From: a virus
Taxonomy: Duplodnaviria; Caudoviricetes
Length of the DNA stretch: 35,495 nt
Virus record (IMG/VR): IMGVR_UViG_3300046779_000859
Coordinates: 1 to 35,495 of that record
Reading direction: 5' to 3' (one strand)
The notes beneath the pieces were generated by a model. That model was not told the origin of the DNA and searched no databases. It saw nothing but the letters and a program-made list of their open reading frames with translations. Of this stretch, positions 19,568 through 33,289 are shown one piece after another (within the stretch, counting starts at the first letter, position 1; each line of letters opens with the position of its first letter). A program made the position numbers and the translations under genes.

Positions 19568-21415
19568 TTAGTGATCCCTTAGCTGTACAAAGTTAGGAAT
19601 CAAAATGTTTGCCTTTGATTCATTTTCTGACTCATTGACATAATCAAAAGATAGGATGTAACTACCAATAGGCTTTGGAGGTCTACCCTTCTCAATGTGA
19701 TATCCAAATTCTCCATCTCCATATTCCTCTTTATAGGCGGCTGTCCTAATATGATGGACGTACTTGTGCTTAACTGAATATCCAGATCTTGGAGTGTGTT
19801 CCAATGATTCTTGAGAGTCAATAACATGATACAACTCGTGAACGTGACCCTGCCAAATACAATCAGCTCCAGATATCATTACACCCATACGGTTGTTTTG
19901 TATAACACCCTTTGTAACAGGTCCACCACCTCCAGAACCATGATAATACTTTACATTAAAAGCATGGTTAGAGTGGCTCTTATATCTCATCTGAAGTTTC
20001 CACCAACCGCCATATCCACCAGTGTGAATAGATGTCTTGTTCTTATAATTCATAAGATCAACAAATCTTTGGAGTGGATCAGTCTCTGTGTTTTTAATAA
20101 TTGCAGTGTTACCAGAGTACGCTACTTTACCATCAATTCTAGTAATAAAACATCCAGAAGGCATATTTAAACAATATACATCCCCATCATAATCTTCTCT
20201 TGTTATAGAAAGCTTCTTAGATTTTTTCAATTCCTCAGATATCAAAACCTTATATTGTTTCTTTCCGTTTTTAAAAGCACTAAGAGAGTCATGCTCTGAA
20301 TACTTACAATTCCAGCCATTGTTTACGCAGGCAGATTGAACAACGTCAACATTATGTTTATCCGTAGATGTCCAAAGCATACTAGACCCCGTGATATTCG
20401 CATCAGTGTTTCTAATAGCGTTAATCATAGCCAAGAACTCAGATTTGTTACAGTCTTTCAAATATGATGGTATTTTCTTCTCCCCATCAAGGTTTTGAAA
20501 TATTCTTCTTGCATCATCACCATAAATACGAATGTAATAAGGTTGCAACTTATTCAGCCCTGTCTTTTTACACTCAGTAAACGTATATTCAATACCATTA
20601 GCTTCTAATAACTCTTTAATATACTCAATCTTTCTCTCCTTTGAAAGCTTAAACTGAATACGAATCTTCTTGGAGTTCTCCTGGTATTTAGCATGATTAA
20701 CTATAGTAGCATCCATAACCACAGCGGTCAATAGCTCTACCCATTGCGGTATCCACTCAATATCGTCCTGTATCTTAACTCGACCATGAGGAAGGTCAGA
20801 TTCTGTTATTTTCTGACATTCAGATAACGCCATTAAATCTTCAGCGTTAATCTTCTCCATGTTGTTAAACATAACAGCGTGTTTTGAAGATACAATCTGC
20901 TTTGTGTAAGTTCCCTCAATGGTGTATAATGCATCCGCCTTTTTAGAAACAACAGCGTTTGGATTCTCATAATAAACATTATTTGAATCAAATGTCGCAA
21001 CTAAATCATCGGTTGTAACATCAGTTATTTTAACCCATCCTCTATCGGTAAGAACCTCCGTATCAGGGCGGTAGCATTCATGATTTCCATAACCAATCCA
21101 AGCAATGTTCTGAGCGTATGGACTCCACCAATCAACAGCCGATTCTATTACGGCGTCCAAATAATTGTGTACGTTATGCTCAGGTCTAATGTCCTTCTTG
21201 TTTCTTCGAGGATCCCACTTACCCTGCATTAAACAGAAAAAATCGCCATTAATAACGATTCCCATATCCTGCTCAATAGCCATGTCTAAATGTTTTTTTA
21301 GAATATCCCTTTTACATTTAGGGTTGTCCCAATGGATATCAGACATCATTAACCATTTTTTTTCAGATGAACACTCAGTAATCAGAATGTTTTTTCTGTG
21401 TTTTGTAGTTATCAT
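19568..21415 (-). CDS. Calcineurin-like metallophosphoesterase interrupted by an intein
   Basis: SDIHWD, NGDFF, GNHE, YYHG and GHVH motifs; extein 292 aa. Confidence 0.9.
   Translation of the reverse strand: MITTKHRKNILITECSSEKKWLMMSDIHWDNPKCKRDILKKHLDMAIEQDMGIVINGDFFCLMQGKWDPRRNKKDIRPEHNVHNYLDAVIESAVDWWSPYAQNIAWIGYGNHECYRPDTEVLTDRGWVKITDVTTDDLVATFDSNNVYYENPNAVVSKKADALYTIEGTYTKQIVSSKHAVMFNNMEKINAEDLMALSECQKITESDLPHGRVKIQDDIEWIPQWVELLTAVVMDATIVNHAKYQENSKKIRIQFKLSKERKIEYIKELLEANGIEYTFTECKKTGLNKLQPYYIRIYGDDARRIFQNLDGEKKIPSYLKDCNKSEFLAMINAIRNTDANITGSSMLWTSTDKHNVDVVQSACVNNGWNCKYSEHDSLSAFKNGKKQYKVLISEELKKSKKLSITREDYDGDVYCLNMPSGCFITRIDGKVAYSGNTAIIKNTETDPLQRFVDLMNYKNKTSIHTGGYGGWWKLQMRYKSHSNHAFNVKYYHGSGGGGPVTKGVIQNNRMGVMISGADCIWQGHVHELYHVIDSQESLEHTPRSGYSVKHKYVHHIRTAAYKEEYGDGEFGYHIEKGRPPKPIGSYILSFDYVNESENESKANILIPNFVQLRDH
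20108..21076 (-). mobile_element. Intein (323 aa) with a degenerate LAGLIDADG-type endonuclease domain
   Basis: Block A CYRPDTEVLTDRGW, block B VSSKH, blocks F/G YDGDVYCLNMPSGCFITR...SGN followed by +1 Thr; LTAVVMDA and INAIRNTDA resemble LAGLIDADG helices. Confidence 0.92.
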
Positions 21416-23585: not shown

Positions 23586-25273
23586 AAAATAGAAAGACCT
23601 ACATCGTAAACGCAGATCGTGTAGGTGAAAATTCTATGTCTTGTCCTGTATGTTCTCAGGATAGAAAGAAGAAGGATGTTAAATGCATGTCTTTCAATAC
23701 AATAGAGGGTGTTGGTAAGTGTAATCATTGCGGCGCCAGATTTGTTAGGAAGAATGAGGACAGAGAGACCCCAAGATACGTGAGACCCGTTCCTCAATCA
23801 AATGTGACATGCCTTCCAGACCGACTTGTTGAGTGGTTCAAGGACAGGGGTATATCCTCATCTACATTAATCGACTTCAAGATTACACACGGCAGACAGT
23901 TCTTCCCACAAGTATCAAAGGAGCGTAACTGCATAAACTTTAACTACTTCAGAAACGAGGACCTAATCAACGTGAAATATCGTGATGCTGAAAAGAACTT
24001 CCGTCTTGTAAAGGATGCCGAATTAATTCTATACAACCTTGACAGCATAGATCACAAGTACGTGGTAATCACAGAGGGTGAAATAGATGCAATGTCCTAC
24101 CACGAGGTTGGTGTTAAATCAGTAGTGTCCGTTCCAAATGGGGCGTCAAAAAACAACCGTCTACAATATATTGACAACTGTATTGACGAACTTGACAAGG
24201 TGGAAAAGATATACATAGCAACTGACGATGATGAGCCAGGTAGAGTCCTTCAAGAGGAGATAGCAAGACGTTTGGGGAAGGAGAGGTGTAGGCGTGTGTC
24301 ATTCTTTGGAAAAAAGGATGCTAACGAACTTCTCATAGCCGACCCTTTGATGCTACCTAAGACATTGGAAGCCGCAGAAGAATACCCACTTGAAGGCGTA
24401 GTAACAGTAGATAATCTATCAGAGGATATATGGAGGCTTAGAAGGGATGGACTAAAGAGGGGTTGCGATATATCTATAAGTGAGTTTAATGACCTGCTAA
24501 CCTTTGTTCCAGGATATGTCACAGGAGTTACAGGCATACCGAACCATGGTAAGTCGGAGTTCCTCGATCAGATTATAGTTGACCTATCCGTAAAGCATGA
24601 TTGGAGATTTGGAATATTCTCACCTGAGAACTACCCACTTCAACTGCACTTTGCAAAGCTTGCCAGTAAGCTGCTCGGAGTTAGTTTTAATGAGACGAAT
24701 GATGCTCAAATTATATCCGCCATGAACTACTGCCGTGATAACTTCTTCTACATCGTGCCTGAAGAGGACAATAGCCTCGATTCAATAATAGAGCATGCAA
24801 AGAACCTCGTTAAGAGGTACGGCATAAATGCAATCGTAATAGACGCCTGGAATAAGCTTGACCACAACTACGTCGGCACAGAGACACAACACATTTCAAA
24901 GGAGCTTGATAAACTAATATCATTCTGCCGTAAGTATAGCGTACACGCCTTTGTAGTAGCCCACCCAACTAAAATGTCAAGAGATCCAAAGACACAAGCC
25001 TACAACGTAGCAACACTATATGATATGGCTGGTAGTGCCCACTTCTATAATAAGATGGATAACGGTATATCCGTATACCGAGAGTTCTTCCCCGATGGAT
25101 CGTCACAGCCGCAAATCTATGTTCAGAAGGTTAAGTTCAAACACTGGGGGCAACAGGGTAGCGTTACACTACAATACGATGTCCCAACAGGTAGATATTA
25201 TTTTTTTGGAAAGAGGGATAGAAGTTCTTATATTAGCAACGAATTTATCCACAAACAGGAATTAGATCTATGA
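23558..25273 (+). CDS. Bifunctional primase-helicase (T7 gp4/Twinkle-like)
   Basis: Zn finger CPVC...CNHC, TOPRIM EGEIDA and TDDD, Walker A GIPNHGKS, Walker B VIDAW, VAHPTK. Confidence 0.95.
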   Translation: MASEKIINLENRKTYIVNADRVGENSMSCPVCSQDRKKKDVKCMSFNTIEGVGKCNHCGARFVRKNEDRETPRYVRPVPQSNVTCLPDRLVEWFKDRGISSSTLIDFKITHGRQFFPQVSKERNCINFNYFRNEDLINVKYRDAEKNFRLVKDAELILYNLDSIDHKYVVITEGEIDAMSYHEVGVKSVVSVPNGASKNNRLQYIDNCIDELDKVEKIYIATDDDEPGRVLQEEIARRLGKERCRRVSFFGKKDANELLIADPLMLPKTLEAAEEYPLEGVVTVDNLSEDIWRLRRDGLKRGCDISISEFNDLLTFVPGYVTGVTGIPNHGKSEFLDQIIVDLSVKHDWRFGIFSPENYPLQLHFAKLASKLLGVSFNETNDAQIISAMNYCRDNFFYIVPEEDNSLDSIIEHAKNLVKRYGINAIVIDAWNKLDHNYVGTETQHISKELDKLISFCRKYSVHAFVVAHPTKMSRDPKTQAYNVATLYDMAGSAHFYNKMDNGISVYREFFPDGSSQPQIYVQKVKFKHWGQQGSVTLQYDVPTGRYYFFGKRDRSSYISNEFIHKQELDL

Positions 25274-25803
25274 TTAAGGAGCTGACATCAATGGTTAAAC
25301 CACACATGGTAAACCAATTCTTAGAAACAATCATCAATAACGAATACGATAAAATAAAAGACGAAGCTATGGAAATGCTTGAGGAGATACGCTGCAATAT
25401 AGATGTTAAGCTGCATATCAAAAGATTTATGGAGGTGACTCTATCATGTTGTGCTGATGCATTTGGAACGACTGCCGATGAGATTCGCAGCCGCAATAGA
25501 CGAAGCCACATAATAGACGCAAAGAGAGCCTACATGTGGATCGTAAAGGTGTCAACAGGATGCACGCATAGATTCATAAGTGACAACTTAGAGATGCACC
25601 ACTCATCAGTTATACACCACCTCAATACAGTAGAGGCGTATCTAATGTATAACCCCGACTTTAAAACAAAGCTCAACTCTATCGTAACCGACTTAAAACG
25701 AGTTGGATACACAGAACCATCAGAGCAATTTGTTAATCATGTTAATAAAGCGGAGCAAAGAAAGAGAAGAAATAGAGACCGGATAAATAAGAATAGGTTG
25801 TAG
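25270..25803 (+). CDS. DnaA C-terminal (domain IV)-like HTH protein
   Basis: FGTTADEIRSRNRRSHIIDAKRAYMW...HHSSVIH resembles DnaA domain IV (S-x-x-R...R-x-x-x-MY...DHTTV). Confidence 0.75.
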   Translation: MIKELTSMVKPHMVNQFLETIINNEYDKIKDEAMEMLEEIRCNIDVKLHIKRFMEVTLSCCADAFGTTADEIRSRNRRSHIIDAKRAYMWIVKVSTGCTHRFISDNLEMHHSSVIHHLNTVEAYLMYNPDFKTKLNSIVTDLKRVGYTEPSEQFVNHVNKAEQRKRRNRDRINKNRL

Positions 25804-26840: not shown

Positions 26841-27080
26841 ATGACACCAAAAGAAAAAGCATTAGACTTATTTTCTACATTCAGATTTGCTATATCATTT
26901 CCTAATAATCCACTTGGTGAGGATAAAGATAGAGTAGCAAAGATATGCGCATCTATGGCAGTGGCTGAAATAGAAGAAGCACTTGTGGATTATGGTAGAG
27001 GGGATTCGCTTCAACTTCAAAACATGGATTCTGAATTTAGATTTTGGGAGCAAGTAAAACAAGAAATAGAAAACCTTTAA
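26841..27080 (+). CDS. Small hypothetical protein (MTPKEKA family)
   Basis: MTPKEKALDL...AKICA...FWEQVKQEIENL. Confidence 0.75.
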   Translation: MTPKEKALDLFSTFRFAISFPNNPLGEDKDRVAKICASMAVAEIEEALVDYGRGDSLQLQNMDSEFRFWEQVKQEIENL

Positions 27081-27092
27081 AACTAAATAACT

Positions 27093-27326
27093 ATGGAAAA
27101 GAAACAAACTGCGGTTGAATGGTTAGCTGAACAATTAGTGCCAAAGGCTATGCTTACCTATGATGCTATAACTTATAATGCTATTCAACAAGCCAAGCAA
27201 ATGGAGAAGGAGCAACATTTTGAATCATATAGACAAGGTAACGTCTTCTTAGACTCTGACTCACTTAACTTTAAAGGTAGTTTTGATGAATACTACAACG
27301 AAACATACGGAGGTAACAATGAGTAA
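27093..27326 (+). CDS. Small hypothetical protein (KQTAVEWL family)
   Basis: KKQTAVEWL...QAKQMEKEQ...DEYYNETYG. Confidence 0.75.
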   Translation: MEKKQTAVEWLAEQLVPKAMLTYDAITYNAIQQAKQMEKEQHFESYRQGNVFLDSDSLNFKGSFDEYYNETYGGNNE

Positions 27327-27591
27327 TTGGATAAGCGTAAAAGAGGCACTGCCAAAATCTATAAATGATGAGTATTATTATAGCGAAAATGTTTGGGTGC
27401 TTTGCGACAATGAGGTAATGGTAATGAGATTGGTCTTAATACAAGATGATGATGGAGATTGGGCTTGGTTATGGGCAAATTGCTATGGAAATGTTTTTGG
27501 AGATGGTAAAGTGGATGATGATTACGAAGTAACACATTGGATGCCATTAGAAATTCCACAAAATTTAGGAGGTCAAGATGAAAACCCGTAA
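27319..27591 (+). CDS. DUF551-like protein
   Basis: MSNWISVKEALP...VTHWMPL; start moved to ATG 27319. Confidence 0.8.
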   Translation: MSNWISVKEALPKSINDEYYYSENVWVLCDNEVMVMRLVLIQDDDGDWAWLWANCYGNVFGDGKVDDDYEVTHWMPLEIPQNLGGQDENP

Positions 27592-27946
27592 ACATCAATG
27601 GTTCTGTGAAAAAACAAAAGTTGCTCAAGCATACACTATACCTTGTGTTGGCTGTGATTTTACTTGTAAGAATGTAGTACGTCAATCTAAATCTCATGTT
27701 ATAACCAGAGCTAAACGTAAAGCAATATTACAACGTGACCGTAAAAGGTGTACACAATGTGGTAACACAGAAAAATTAACTGTAGACCATTTACTTCCTA
27801 TTTGTGAAGGGGGTAAAAATGATAGTTGGAATCTTACTACTTTATGTCATGCTTGTAATAACAGTAAAGGAGATAAACTGGTAGATAAATTCTTGAAGTT
27901 ACGGTTTAATCAACGGTACGGAATTAAAACTTACATGGGATGGTAG
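27578..27946 (+). CDS. HNH endonuclease
   Basis: RD-x-x-x-CTQCG...LTVDHLLP...GG...NLTTLCHACNNSKG. Confidence 0.92.
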   Translation: MKTRKHQWFCEKTKVAQAYTIPCVGCDFTCKNVVRQSKSHVITRAKRKAILQRDRKRCTQCGNTEKLTVDHLLPICEGGKNDSWNLTTLCHACNNSKGDKLVDKFLKLRFNQRYGIKTYMGW

Positions 27947-28071
27947 AATTATTTTGGATTATTTTTAAAGAACCTTTTAGAATGGTCAACGATTTTATGT
28001 TTGGAGATAACCATCATATCGTATCTGAAAGAGGTTGGAAAATATTAAATAACAATAAAAGGTCAAGATGA
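27940..28071 (+). CDS. 43-aa hypothetical protein
   Basis: Absent from the track; fills the gap and overlaps both neighbours (MVELFWIIFKEPF...). Confidence 0.5.
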   Translation: MVELFWIIFKEPFRMVNDFMFGDNHHIVSERGWKILNNNKRSR

Positions 28072-28361: not shown

Positions 28362-28560
28362 CATAAGCAAGTGTTCGGGTGAAGGATGCCCACACAAAGA
28401 AAAGTGCTACCGATTCACAGCACCAGCTGACGAGTACCGACAAGCCTATTTCGCAGAGCCGCCAATCAAAGACGATGGATCATGCGATATGTTCTGGGGA
28501 CAGACACAAACAGACATCCTATCCCAACTAAAAGAAATAGTACAACAGAAGCCTCAATAG
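28354..28560 (+). CDS. Small Cys-rich putative Zn-binding protein
   Basis: DISKC-x4-CP-x4-CYRF...CDMFW. Confidence 0.75.
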   Translation: MSDISKCSGEGCPHKEKCYRFTAPADEYRQAYFAEPPIKDDGSCDMFWGQTQTDILSQLKEIVQQKPQ

Positions 28561-28571
28561 AGGCTTTTTTT
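28549..28571 (+). terminator. Intrinsic terminator closing the replication-side operon
   Basis: AAGCCTC-AATA-GAGGCTT followed by a T-run. Confidence 0.85.
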
Positions 28572-28593
28572 ATACCCATAAAGTCCCCTATAC

Positions 28594-28909
28594 GTCACAA
28601 TTATTCTAAAATTTGTGGCATAAAAGACACACTATAGTATGACTTTTCAGTCATTAAAGTCAAAATATGGCTTTACGGTCAGCGATCCCATACTTTAATA
28701 TGAGTTAGATGTTATTTATAACACCTGTCCGATATAAGCGGACAACCAACAAAAGACAGTAAACCACTCCTACTGGCAAATGTTTGTCGCAAGTATAGTA
28801 AACTTTTGCGACAGCTGTTGTAGATAATTATCACCAGAATCAACCCTATCGTTGATAATAATCCCCAACCCCCCCCTACCAAAAAAAACAGCCCAGCGTG
28901 GAACACGCT
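28594..28909. repeat. Dense array of about 10 mutually different inverted repeats
   Basis: For example TGTCCG-N7-CGGACA (28726-44), TGTCGCAA-N13-TTGCGACA (28785-813), ATCAAC-N6-GTTGAT, ATGAC-N6-GTCAT. Confidence 0.75.
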
Positions 28910-28925
28910 ACCACCTTAGCACATC

Positions 28926-28941
28926 CGTTTCACGTGGAACA
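28926..28941. promoter_or_regulatory. parS: parS site 1 (one terminal mismatch)
   Basis: CGTTTCACGTGGAACA versus consensus TGTTTCACGTGAAACA / TGTTCCACGTGAAACA. Confidence 0.8.
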
Positions 28942-29044
28942 TCAAAACAGGCAGAACATAGTGTGGAGGGGGTCATATATACACATGGGACGCATACATC
29001 GGTGGGCAAACTGCTTTTTTGCGAATGGGGTGGGGTTCTAGTTA

Positions 29045-29113
29045 GTGTACATTCAACACTAAGGGGGGGTGTGTACTTTATACACTAAGGTTCGTGTACA
29101 TTTTACACTAAGG
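29045..29113. repeat. Three 20-bp direct repeats, internally palindromic (GTGTA-N5-TACAC-TAAGG)
   Basis: 29045-64, 29071-90, 29094-113. Confidence 0.9.
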
Positions 29114-29119
29114 TAGGCT

Positions 29120-29234
29120 TATTTAGAATGATTATAAATTACAGCAAATACTTGACAAGGGCAATAAGCAACAAAAGAGGAAAGTATTTTCACTATTTAG
29201 AACGTTTCTAAATTACGCCGAAAACTTGACAAAG
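29120..29234. repeat. Two 41-bp imperfect repeats, each with a 19-bp Fur-box-like palindrome and CTTGACAA
   Basis: ATTTAGAATGATTATAAAT (29121-39) and ATTTAGAACGTTTCTAAAT (29195-213); 74-bp period. Confidence 0.7.
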
Positions 29235-29380
29235 ATATGTTTTATTTTGTAACTCCTACGCGCGCGGGAATACCTTATATGGACAAAGGGCAAAAGTAGT
29301 AAGCAAAAAAAAATTTCAAATTTATTTCATTGATAATCAGTACTTTAGATATAACTCGAAAAAAAATTTTGCAAAAACTA

Positions 29381-29411
29381 TTGACAAAAAAACATATCCG
29401 TTGTATGTTTG
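29381..29411 (+). promoter_or_regulatory. Bacteroidota promoter for the early-type region, with upstream A-tracts and an IHF-like site
   Basis: TTG-N20-TATGTTTG; AATCAGTACTTTA (WATCAR-N4-TTR) at 29335-47. Confidence 0.75.
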
Positions 29412-29798
29412 CAAAGTCAATCGAAACAACATATACAAGCGAGTATAATGCGGTTGGTAGGTATAGCCCCTACGTGCTATATAGGAAAGGATAAACGTGC
29501 CTAAAACCCACTAAAATAGGGATATTTTAGATGTGGCGAAGCCATACCCTACCTGTACATTCTTTGACATCTGCAAAGGGAGTAAATTTCACAACTGAAA
29601 TAAGGGGTGAAGTGCGTCTAATATGGAAATACACATTGTTTGTGTTGGTGGTGGTATGCGGTGAAGTGCATACGTTTATTAGGCGGTTGCGAATTTGGTG
29701 CATAAAAGTAGAAATACGTGCGCACGTCTTGACAAGGCGGTTTCTTACTCGGTAGGAAAAAAACAATACAACAAACATAAACGCGCGGTTTGTTCATG

Positions 29799-29814
29799 TG
29801 TTCCACGTGAAACA
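29799..29814. promoter_or_regulatory. parS: parS site 2
   Basis: TGTTCCACGTGAAACA. Confidence 0.88.
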
Positions 29815-29852
29815 AGCTGTATACCTATATTAAATAGTGCTCGGCGCCGATG

Positions 29853-29868
29853 TGTTCCACGTGAAACA
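29853..29868. promoter_or_regulatory. parS: parS site 3
   Basis: TGTTCCACGTGAAACA. Confidence 0.88.
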
Positions 29869-29938
29869 TTGCATGGTTCGATTCCATGACTATTTCAATA
29901 CGCAATAATGCGTAGAAATCAAACAACAAACAAAAAAA

Positions 29939-30343
29939 ATGGGTATTTTTCAATTAAGTGTTTCCTTCAAGAAGGACAACAAAGTTACGGGCGTAACTAC
30001 AGAAACAAGTGTTTACAACATCGAATTTGAACCGAAGGGCAAATTGAATACGGGGCAAATTGTCGGTACAGCTTGCAATGAATTGTACAAATGGGTTGAC
30101 CTTGTAAAAGATATGGGCGCAACATTCAGTACTACGGGCGGATACTTTGACATATTCATAAAGTCGAATAGCACTGTACTTGATACGTCTATAGTTAAAC
30201 GTGAGCTTAAACAAAAGTTAGCGTTCAACAAGACGGATGAAAGTAGAAAGCGATTTGCACAGCGTGTGAATAGACTCGCTAAGTTTATGGCTACTGAACC
30301 TACTGTAGTTCACATAGATGATGTTATAGAAGCGCTATCTTAA
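29939..30343 (+). CDS. Hypothetical protein, first gene of the early-type block
   Basis: 134 aa, A-rich leader, followed by a terminator. Confidence 0.8.
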   Translation: MGIFQLSVSFKKDNKVTGVTTETSVYNIEFEPKGKLNTGQIVGTACNELYKWVDLVKDMGATFSTTGGYFDIFIKSNSTVLDTSIVKRELKQKLAFNKTDESRKRFAQRVNRLAKFMATEPTVVHIDDVIEALS

Positions 30344-30365
30344 TTCTGGCGGCTATTCAATTTTC

Positions 30366-30393
30366 AAGGGGGGCTTCGTGCCCCTTTTTATTT
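30366..30393 (+). terminator. Intrinsic terminator
   Basis: AAGGGG...CTTCG...CCCCTT followed by TTTATTT. Confidence 0.75.
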
Positions 30394-30410
30394 ACCTTAA
30401 AATTAAACTT

Positions 30411-30695
30411 ATGTTTAAAATATCACATTTTATCACAGGTGAACGTAGAGAAAAATCAAAAGGGTTCACTATGGAATTTGAAAACGGCAACACGATAAGC
30501 GTTCAATTCGGTCGCGGTAACTATTGCGAAAATCGAGACGATTCAGAAGGTAAACACTATTCAGCAGATGCTGAAATAGCAATATGGAATACCGAAAACA
30601 AATGGTACGACTTCGGAACTGATACGGTCAAAGGCTGGTGTACACCCGATGAGGTCGCTAAATGGATTCACTTTGCATCAACCACAAAATTCTAA
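30411..30695 (+). CDS. Hypothetical phage protein
   Basis: ATG at 30411; FENGNTISVQFG-x-GNYC...AEIAIW...VKGW-x-TPDEV. Confidence 0.8.
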   Translation: MFKISHFITGERREKSKGFTMEFENGNTISVQFGRGNYCENRDDSEGKHYSADAEIAIWNTENKWYDFGTDTVKGWCTPDEVAKWIHFASTTKF

Positions 30696-30711
30696 TGTTC
30701 CACGTGAAACA
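30696..30711. promoter_or_regulatory. parS: parS site 4
   Basis: TGTTCCACGTGAAACA immediately after a stop codon. Confidence 0.88.
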
Positions 30712-31136: not shown

Positions 31137-32384
31137 ATGGAAGAAGAAAAAACTCCAGAAACAATCCTCCTATACAACGGAGAAGAAGTCAGCACCGACA
31201 CAACAACGGGTTGCTTTGACTATGGTCAATATCAAGGCCAACTATACGCCGATGGTGATGATGATGTTATCATCTTGACAAGTGGTGATACATGTCACAG
31301 CGATGATGATTGGCACACCACAAATTGCGGTGATACATTCCACGAAGATGAACAGGACAGCCTTGACATAATCTTTGCGGACTATGATGGTGAGTACGCC
31401 TATTCATCAGATTGTACCTATGGTATAGTAGACCGTAGGGGTCATGAGGGGTATTGGTTAGACACATATCATGACCATGAAGCCGTATATTCAAATAGAG
31501 ATAGCATTCATTTCATTGACTCACAAGTAGCACGTGAACGTGACTACATCTTTGATGATAATCAAGACGATTGGGTACACATAGATGATTATGAGGGTGA
31601 TAATGATGATGATGAGGGTGAGGATACGTCCTCTTATGTTAAGTCATATCATGGCTATTCAAGACAGTTTGTTTGTGACTCTTCGGCGGCTTGGAGGTTT
31701 GGTGTCGAGGTCGAGAAGGAGGACTACGATGCTAAGACCATGGAGTACCCCGATACTATATACAACGCTGTCAAGTGGTGTAAAGAATCGGACGGGTCTC
31801 TCAATGACTACTCTGGCTTTGAGTTGGTGTCGCCCGTGTATGACCTCATGGACAAGGGTACTTGGTTGCGTGACTTTTCGAACCCACTTATCGAACCGCT
31901 ACTCAATGCTAAACATAGTTCATCATGTGGTGGTCACATCCACATATCATCAAGTATGTATACACCTGATGAGATTATGTTAGGACTTAGCGGCTTCCTA
32001 CCTATACTGTACAGCCTTTACAAGAGACGTATGTTTGCCGACTACGCACGTACTAAGAAGAAGTATCAGTACCTAACTGAGAAAACTAAGAGGGCGAGTG
32101 TATATGTGCAAGATAGGACTTGTGAGTTCCGTATCTTCCCTGCTGTACGTAGTAAGGATAACTTGATATGGCGGCTTGACCTACTACGCATCTTCATTGA
32201 CAACTTCAATGCCTCTGAGCGTGATGTCCTCAAGATGTTGTGTAATACATCACACCCCCTTCATATTCATATCAAGAATATGGTTGGTGATGATAAAATG
32301 ACTGAGAAGATTGATGAGTTCATCGGCTTCAGTAAGACGTGGAATAACTTTAATTTAGATAATGACGATAAAACAATCAAATAA
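31137..32384 (+). CDS. Putative amidoligase (COOH-NH2 ligase, Amidoligase_2-like) with acidic N-terminal region
   Basis: FGVEVE, ESDGSL, FELVSP, SCGGHIH and TCEFR motifs. Confidence 0.88.
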   Translation: MEEEKTPETILLYNGEEVSTDTTTGCFDYGQYQGQLYADGDDDVIILTSGDTCHSDDDWHTTNCGDTFHEDEQDSLDIIFADYDGEYAYSSDCTYGIVDRRGHEGYWLDTYHDHEAVYSNRDSIHFIDSQVARERDYIFDDNQDDWVHIDDYEGDNDDDEGEDTSSYVKSYHGYSRQFVCDSSAAWRFGVEVEKEDYDAKTMEYPDTIYNAVKWCKESDGSLNDYSGFELVSPVYDLMDKGTWLRDFSNPLIEPLLNAKHSSSCGGHIHISSSMYTPDEIMLGLSGFLPILYSLYKRRMFADYARTKKKYQYLTEKTKRASVYVQDRTCEFRIFPAVRSKDNLIWRLDLLRIFIDNFNASERDVLKMLCNTSHPLHIHIKNMVGDDKMTEKIDEFIGFSKTWNNFNLDNDDKTIK

Positions 32385-32386
32385 TT

Positions 32387-33289
32387 ATGTGCATAGCAAT
32401 CTTAAACCCTGAAGATGTTACTCTTGATAAGAGTGTTCTTCGCACGTGTTGGGACAATAACACGGATGGAGCTGGTATTCTATACGTAGATGGCGGCGTC
32501 CTAAAAACACACAAGGAGATGTCTAACTTTGATTCATTCTATGATGAGTATCTACGTATACGTAGTGCTCACAAGGAGTCTCAAGTAGTCATACACTTCC
32601 GTATATCTACACATGGCAAGGTCAATGAGACTAACTGCCACCCATTTATTGTAGATGATTATTGGGGTTTTGTGCATAACGGTATCATATCCAATGCACC
32701 ACACCACGCTGATTACAGCGACACCTATATGTTTAATCAAGAGGTACTTCAAAAGCTACCTAAGGATTGGTTATTCAATGACGCCATCTATGAACTTGTT
32801 GTAGGTTACATTGGCTCATCTAAGTTGCTGTTTCTTAATGCCGACAACGATGCCTATATTCTTAACGAAGATATGGGTGTGTGGGACTTAGGCTGTTGGT
32901 TTAGTAACAAGACGTACAAAGAGTCACGCTACTTTGACTATGGCGGTAAGCAGGTATGGAAGTCGGCGGCGACGCCTACTATCACCTCCTCCTCTACTAC
33001 TAAAGATTATTCTACTAAGTGGTGGGACCGTAGTGATTACTCACCTAAGTGGGTGTGGGATGATAAGAAAAAAGATTATGTTAACAAGTCGGCGGCTGCG
33101 GATGTTTTTGATGATGAGGATGTGGATGTGGACAACTACCCACAAACCGAGTGGCCAACTGATGCGTCTGAGTTATTCATAGACACTTGCGATGGCTGTG
33201 ATTCTCCAGAGGTGCTTGTCGCCTACGATACATCATACAACGCTTGCCTATGTAAAAGCTGCCACGATGATTTGTACACACCCTTTTAA
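32387..33289 (+). CDS. Class II (Ntn) glutamine amidotransferase with C-terminal CxxC...CxxC
   Basis: N-terminal MC, N-x-DGAG, HFRISTHG, NCHPF, HNG and SDT motifs. Confidence 0.92.
   Translation: MCIAILNPEDVTLDKSVLRTCWDNNTDGAGILYVDGGVLKTHKEMSNFDSFYDEYLRIRSAHKESQVVIHFRISTHGKVNETNCHPFIVDDYWGFVHNGIISNAPHHADYSDTYMFNQEVLQKLPKDWLFNDAIYELVVGYIGSSKLLFLNADNDAYILNEDMGVWDLGCWFSNKTYKESRYFDYGGKQVWKSAATPTITSSSTTKDYSTKWWDRSDYSPKWVWDDKKKDYVNKSAAADVFDDEDVDVDNYPQTEWPTDASELFIDTCDGCDSPEVLVAYDTSYNACLCKSCHDDLYTPF

Follow-up and report, generated by a model that had tools for sequence, protein, structure and literature searches.

The window, by which we mean the whole stretch of viral DNA analysed here (35,495 nucleotides), carries four real parS matches, and chance is excluded as their origin. 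These host-type sites lie around the predicted early promoter of a phage in which no ParB gene was found. To judge from sequence, host ParB very probably binds them, and we tentatively propose that the phage keeps them so that ParB loading positions its DNA on the nucleoid.

The parS sites and their surroundings

Three exact copies of TGTTCCACGTGAAACA begin at positions 29799, 29853 and 30696, and a further copy with one mismatch lies on the minus strand at 28926-28941, as a sequence-only reading of this DNA had claimed. Its statement that there were none elsewhere also holds: the window contains no other copy at one mismatch or fewer, and the mean over 100 shuffles is 0.00. The chromosomal parS consensus is given as TGTTTCAC-GTGAAACA (PMC7383237). 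From the idealised consensus TGTTTCACGTGAAACA, a 16-bp inverted repeat, the four sites differ by one to two mismatches each, which bears out their earlier identification as the bacterial ParB-loading sequence. When up to three mismatches against this idealised form are allowed, the same four are still the only ones (shuffle mean 0.37, with four reached in 1 of 100).

Three of the sites fall within the largest non-coding gap of the window (28561-29938, 1378 bp), and the fourth begins right after the stop codon of an ORF at 30378-30695. Some short ORFs overlap the sites, but at the thresholds used the early arms of relatives hold nothing that corresponds to them. A terminator-like hairpin (28550-28571) precedes the control region, whose features are listed here. 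The earlier reading had caught the parS sites of this region and overlooked the half site, the Fur-like boxes and the promoter.

28897-28905, plus strand: parS half site in a short hairpin, also in G001 and G004
28926-28941, minus strand: parS site 1, which precedes the -7 box of the promoter by about 480 bp
28953-29032, plus strand: conserved clade-specific "anchor", the point at which early arms are swapped
29042-29111, no strand: TTAGTGT-N7-ACACTAA palindromes, two good copies and one degenerate, in G000, G001 and G004 only
29121-29139, no strand: Fur-box-like palindrome 1 (Riemerella-type), a motif match
29195-29213, no strand: Fur-box-like palindrome 2, a motif match
29335-29347, plus strand: IHF-like site by its match to the consensus, similarly placed in 7 of 13 records
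29381-29411, plus strand: Bacteroidota-type -33/-7 promoter (TTG-N20-TAnnTTTG), the predicted main early promoter
29799-29814, plus strand: parS site 2, in the untranslated leader
29853-29868, plus strand: parS site 3, in the untranslated leader and followed by a T-loop-like hairpin (29872-29888)
29939-30343, plus strand: first early ORF, 134 aa, with homologues in G006 and G011
30696-30711, plus strand: parS site 4, separating early ORFs 2 and 3
31137-33289, plus strand: amidoligase (PF12224) and class II glutamine amidotransferase, which travel with the parS-type early arm

The promoter is predicted from the -33/-7 consensus; with it the window gives six matches against a chance mean of 2.9, which by count alone is not significant. 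Four of the six are intergenic and face genes, and a -7 box stands at the matching place in 10 of 11 records. The untranslated leader is about 520 nt long and contains parS sites 2 and 3 and the T-loop hairpin. The first early ORF has no family or Atlas match. A boxA-like word (29561-29568) and the tRNA T-loop-like hairpin, both in the leader and possible signals for antitermination and RNA processing, are common to G006, G011 and the phage Gundel_1. The short terminal repeats of Gundel_1 are predicted by PhageTerm (PMC8776804); from its left end it is about 630 bp to the matching -7 box, after which come the boxA-like word, the T-loop and the first genes. By analogy, the region described here is probably the left, first-entering end of the genome, near 28.8 kb, and the anchor is a candidate genome-end or packaging signal. 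A search of all viral contigs with the anchor returns ten matches, nine of them on contigs already found through clade proteins and the tenth identical letter for letter to the anchor of G006. The cumulative GC skew of G008 has its minimum at the anchor, but is flat over 5 kb. Two other identities for the region were rejected. One-mismatch DnaA boxes number 0-3 per 1.6 kb (10 in the window), an absence of enrichment that argues against an origin mimic with DnaA boxes. As for a non-coding RNA, there is no Rfam or tRNA match, and the fold of the leader has z = -1.76, with 7 of 100 shuffles as stable.

A 19-bp Fur motif was derived and gel-shifted in Riemerella anatipestifer according to the results of one study, whose abstract gives the classical box (PMC5609570). 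Against the 19-bp ATTTAGAATnATTCTAAAT, the two Fur-like palindromes have one and two mismatches (shuffle mean 0.09, two reached in 1 of 100). The -7 box follows 210-280 bp downstream of them, which is too far for plain repression, and the first ORF about 730-800 bp downstream, outside the distance of up to about 100 bp from a regulated start codon that goes with Riemerella-type boxes. Fur-like boxes occur in nine of the ten parS-bearing records and in none of the four parS-free ones, a co-occurrence that amounts to physical linkage in a few lineages; a general pairing of Fur and parS was rejected, parS being near only 1 of 123 Fur-like loci elsewhere. It is possible, on the analogy of the Spo0A boxes of phi29, that the Fur-like boxes are a host-state input beside the partition sites. 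The TTAGTGT repeats fit the GT-N7-AC core of NrtR sites (PMC2330246) and are a candidate lead confined to three records. A stretch similar to them lies about 480 bp from parS in an unrelated locus (L016).

Conservation of parS and exchange of the early arm

Relatives were gathered by primase, terminase and anchor scans, and 13 other records cover the parS region. Contigs that stop short of it (L132, L134, L137, L139, L140, G014, G015 and others) stand outside the 13, and G016, whose contig breaks off within a parS-like site, was left uncounted. Nine of the 13 keep parS, so the sites are conserved in relatives, a point on which the sequence-only reading had staked its proposal. They number one to six per record, at matching positions and in unrelated flanks: six in L163, five in G009, four in G001 and in G002, three in G004, two in each of G003, G006 and G011, and one in G012. 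Four records lack them (G007, G008, G010 and G013), among which G008 is the only complete genome; its lone two-mismatch match breaks the core of the site. At up to two mismatches, parS is found in none of seven cultured distant relatives, of the Elemovirus, Pachyviridae and Pervagoviridae types.

Across the 33 sites in ten records (window included), variation is confined to positions 1/16 and 5/12, and there is no compensatory change. In Bacillus parS, position 5 is the degenerate one. Between G000, G001 and the G002 group the leader parS is identical at 16 of 16 positions and the 40-nt flanks match at 8-14 of 40, the chance level; between the two lineages with this identical leader parS, terminase identity is 88-89%. 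The ten parS-bearing records represent about four independent lineages. Selection for a DNA-binding protein that has the specificity of ParB would be expected to produce this pattern, and we take the sites to be under selection.

The whole early arm is swappable, and parS is gained and lost with it. G006, which has parS, and G007, which has none, share 99.5% identical terminases, and their DNA is 96-98% identical up to the anchor and diverges completely beyond it; the terminases of G011 (parS) and G008 (none) are 99.6% identical. Since these near-identical pairs differ in parS and four relatives do without it, the sites are not essential to the clade: parS is an accessory, dispensable trait. 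The amidoligase and amidotransferase pair is present in all seven parS-bearing records that are long enough and in none of the four parS-free ones, and these two are the only genes common to the parS-bearing records and absent from the others. The correlations among parS, Fur-like boxes and the two enzymes reflect linkage on one module and few events.

Right after the anchor, the parS-free G007, G008, G010 and G013 (L499, L504, L506 and L519) have 7-9 phased GTTGTA-N6-TACAAC palindromes, which in G008 occupy 56350-56760 and are mostly spaced by 23-24, 32-36 or 45-46 bp. This array may be iteron-like or centromere-like and read by a phage protein. It was rejected as a host site, clustered arrays being found in only 4 of 42 loci, all of this clade, and plasmids gave no match of note to it. 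A related word occurs in or just upstream of the initiator gene of the parS-free relatives.

The phage, its host and the search for partition genes

The phage appears in sequencing runs that are mostly freshwater metagenomes. The left arm of the window holds tail, capsid, portal and terminase genes, and the right arm genes for SSB-like, initiator, primase-helicase, DnaA domain IV, HNH, amidoligase and amidotransferase proteins. Terminase and portal each match 87 of 50,697 phage records at 21-29% identity. These belong to Elemovirus, Pachyviridae, Pervagoviridae and Maribacter phage Panino, with Flavobacterium, Cellulophaga, Tenacibaculum and Maribacter as hosts, plus one uncultured record. The earlier label "crAss-like" has to be given up, as neither terminase nor portal matches Crassvirales. 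Crassvirales typically carry genes for a virion RNA polymerase and a DNA polymerase; neither polymerase is found among the 43 ORFs of the window or among 90 ORFs of G009 and G008.

The phage is best described as a podovirus of 64-66 kb in which no polymerase gene was found, and whose host would be Gram-negative and non-sporulating. There are strong indications in the sequence that this host is a member of the Bacteroidota with ParABS. Besides the terminase and portal matches to phages of Flavobacteriales, such a host is supported by a Shine-Dalgarno-like motif upstream of only 2 of 32 ORFs and by the -33/-7 promoter matches. Bacteroidota are not known to form endospores. Bacteroides thetaiotaomicron encodes ParB, and clusters of parS are reported at the origin of 12 gut bacteria, two of them Bacteroidetes (PMC10197239). 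Cellular genomes gave a single weak and unrelated match in the search for a prophage copy, and the control region has no match of note among cultured sequences.

No ParA or ParB match to Pfam or PHROG was found among the 43 ORFs of the window, in agreement with the earlier claim that it holds no parAB, nor is there a DNA or RNA polymerase match among them. The window is a virus record 54% complete, with about 46% of the genome outside it, and the search was extended to relatives. With controls responding, ParB_N was found in none of ten relatives nor in the window, and HTH_ParB, ParA-type ATPase and tyrosine integrase in none of five; the window, G006 and the relatives that are 86-100% complete show no ParA, ParB or integrase. 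Together the window and G009 (86% complete, with five parS sites) tile the gene order. The 90 ORFs of G009 and G008 from parts outside the window include RecE/RecT, a ferritin-like protein, polyvalent virion proteins and an endolysin, and contain no DNA polymerase, RNA polymerase or partition gene; nor did they reveal a repressor or anything else that would point to a stable plasmid-prophage state. Since no polymerase was found, the phage likely relies on the host replisome. An orphan phage ParA or ParB-like HTH was looked for and rejected: G009 has a small HTH protein, but it looks like generic phage HTH_7/psq proteins, and neither G001 nor G002 has a match to it. A cognate phage ParB, the finding that would have pointed away from the host, thus did not appear in the relatives searched or in the 54%-complete window. 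With parS kept against unrelated flanks and no ParB found, the sequences make co-option of host ParB a well-supported proposal.

Several other features of these genomes were observed. The stand-alone DnaA domain IV (DNA-binding) protein is encoded after the primase at 25270-25803, also in G008 and G013, and a perfect DnaA box at 25245 lies 25 bp before the start of its gene. A 615-aa nuclease-like ORF (19568-21415) has an internal LAGLIDADG-like insert (a weak match), which is missing from G001, G006 and G007; in G003 the primase is interrupted by an insert of a similar kind. The insert is likely a mobile intein. The small-gene block at 26841-28060 is a mosaic among lake populations, with contigs that skip single genes such as HNH. 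In both arm types, genes for giant polyvalent virion proteins flank a ferritin-like gene (L209:7906-8391 in G009, L205:2511-2990 in G008); it suits an iron theme without tracking the Fur-like boxes.

Possible roles of the sites and comparison with known systems

In the proposed mechanism, the host ParB clamp would load on the early end of the phage DNA, and host ParA would then hold and move the ParB-bound DNA on the nucleoid, much like a chromosome origin. If ParB does bind, the chances are about even that the benefit is one of position, namely access to the needed host replisome and inheritance by daughter cells if lysis is delayed. SMC loading would not be needed for this. The sequence-only reading had proposed that the phage recruits host ParB and with it SMC. 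With sites conserved and no cognate ParB found, the first part is well supported; the second is unsupported, as the one Bacteroidota control genome, a Bacteroides, is without ScpA, and no condensin is reported in two Bacteroidetes (PMC10197239). Several points stand against positioning. Four of 13 relatives, including the complete G008, and all seven cultured distant relatives are without parS, which means that the clade replicates without it. Partition by ParA is independent of position, yet the sites lie within about 2 kb, which a role in entry or regulation fits at least as well. The absence of any detected repressor or other sign of a stable plasmid-prophage counts against it too, as does a record with about 46% of the genome outside the window and parS in only about four lineages.

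The sites could instead be decoys: once phage DNA is amplified, hundreds of parS would draw ParB off the host origin and so stall segregation and division, to the advantage of the phage. Bacteria are reported to have 1-10 parS sites per chromosome (PMC10197239) against 2-6 per phage copy, so titration would follow from binding, and the DnaA domain IV protein suggests interference with the host origin. However, that gene is also present in the parS-free G008 and G013, and a decoy could work from anywhere, yet the spacing between the sites and the promoter is maintained. We consider this explanation unlikely.

Somewhat less likely still is a role at entry, in which ParB clamps on the first 2 kb to enter the cell would anchor the DNA, ratchet it in or shield its end, with other binders doing so in sister phages. 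It agrees with the location of every site within about 2 kb of the anchor, with the terminal repeat of Gundel_1 about 630 bp upstream of the analogous promoter with its boxA-like word and T-loop, with the outcome of an independent scan for parS pairs, in which 44 of 78 loci place a site no more than 350 bp from a contig end, and with the 7-9 other phased palindromes that the parS-free relatives hold at the same place. The genome end, however, is placed by analogy, and the set of 44 contains redundant loci, most of them from small phi29-like phages. Moreover, since the alternative array is specific to the clade, a phage protein probably binds it, and such a protein would be absent at entry.

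Control of transcription, in which ParB spreading over the flanked promoter would damp early transcription according to CTP or cell-cycle state, together with Fur, is improbable. Silencing by ParB spreading is known mostly from plasmid ParB or from overproduction, and no parS site overlaps the promoter. On the other side, sites flank the promoter on both sides, the leader pair lies 255-470 bp downstream of the -7 box in seven records, and there are precedents in the host regulators CtrA, LexA and Spo0A, which are reported to gate genes of other phages (PMC9437464). Finally, about half of the genome lies outside the window and any palindrome folds as RNA, so the sites might be look-alikes read by a phage protein or acting as RNA hairpins; this is very unlikely given their identity to the host consensus, variation at two symmetric positions only, the lack of compensatory change, the failure to find a ParB-like domain in the relatives searched, the presence of only two enzymes specific to parS-bearing records, and arrays of the same word in unrelated phages.

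These alternatives and the positioning of phage DNA by host ParB are not mutually exclusive. In a broader picture that we regard as speculative and unlikely to hold as a whole, the first-entering 2 kb would be a switchboard of host-protein sites, through which a phage of a Gram-negative host without spores would have the full logic of phi29: Fur would gate the early promoter by iron, ParB clamps on the incoming end would anchor the genome to the nucleoid, and daughter cells would inherit it until lysis pays. The switchboard and the amidoligase/amidotransferase genes would be traded among near-identical phages as one lifestyle module, and the same borrowing would recur in hundreds of unrelated phage contigs.

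The exact 16-mer is present in about 2,700 viral stretches (an estimate from 3 of 64 parts), some of which may be host DNA; as a rough control, a degenerate 18-nt pattern that is about half as probable by chance gives 42. Close parS pairs occur in about 790 (estimated from 11 of 64 parts), and among the loci sampled are small phi29-like phages, siphoviruses and phages of T4-like type. Many phi29-like phages of about 11-12 kb, with a protein-primed polymerase and a phi29-type capsid, have a parS pair in both terminal inverted repeats (L231, L241/L242, L245/L246, L272/L273, L293/L294). A 116.7-kb contig with 65% GC (L057-L059) has at least 13 parS in about 8 kb, most of them just upstream of successive small genes. 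In L282 (3405-6415), five parS lie near a terminase gene and a second conserved palindrome follows four of them. How non-integrating phages without partition genes position their DNA or persist in slow-growing cells is the question raised here. G006/G007 and G011/G008 are natural near-matched pairs, with and without parS, for a direct comparison, and given these estimated numbers of exact sites and close pairs the answer would apply widely.

In the literature searched, the only worked case of a phage with host parS is that of phi29 and Nf, with spore entrapment as its purpose; no report of host-type parS in Bacteroidota phages was found among titles and abstract openings, with subscription journals mostly outside the search. 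The source cited for parS in phi29 and Nf is said to be Meijer et al. in 2005. In these Bacillus phages parS is bound by host Spo0J (PMC2731898), and phi29 is described as using five parS sites with Spo0J and as having Spo0A boxes near early promoters (PMC2731898; restated in PMC9437464). Like them, the phage described here is non-integrating and has several host-type parS, with no cognate ParB found; its Fur-like boxes, 210-280 bp from the -7 box, may be the counterpart of the Spo0A boxes. Unlike them, it has an inferred Gram-negative, non-sporulating host, Fur-like instead of Spo0A boxes, a genome of 64-66 kb in which no polymerase was found, sites gathered in 2 kb around one promoter, and a trait that can be swapped. 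With a non-sporulating host, spore entrapment cannot be the purpose, and ParB must offer something else.

The chromosomal ParABS centromere has the same 16-bp site, also clustered in a few kb, but no parA or parB was found on this phage replicon, as judged in the 54%-complete window. P1 is a phage-plasmid with its own partition system. The cluster A mycobacteriophages are likewise described as phage-plasmids with their own parABS (PMC7157519). Both resemble the present phage in being non-integrating phage DNA with a centromere; they have their own ParA, ParB and site, whereas here the site is that of the host and neither protein was found. The nearest cultured kin by terminase and portal (identity 21-29%) are the Elemovirus, Pachyviridae and Pervagoviridae podoviruses of Flavobacteriales, among which Gundel_1 has a similar layout of end, promoter and leader; unlike the phage described here, none of the seven records tested has parS at up to two mismatches. 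The phage would thus work like the phi29 system, and is a member neither of that system, nor of the ParABS phage-plasmids, nor of Crassvirales.
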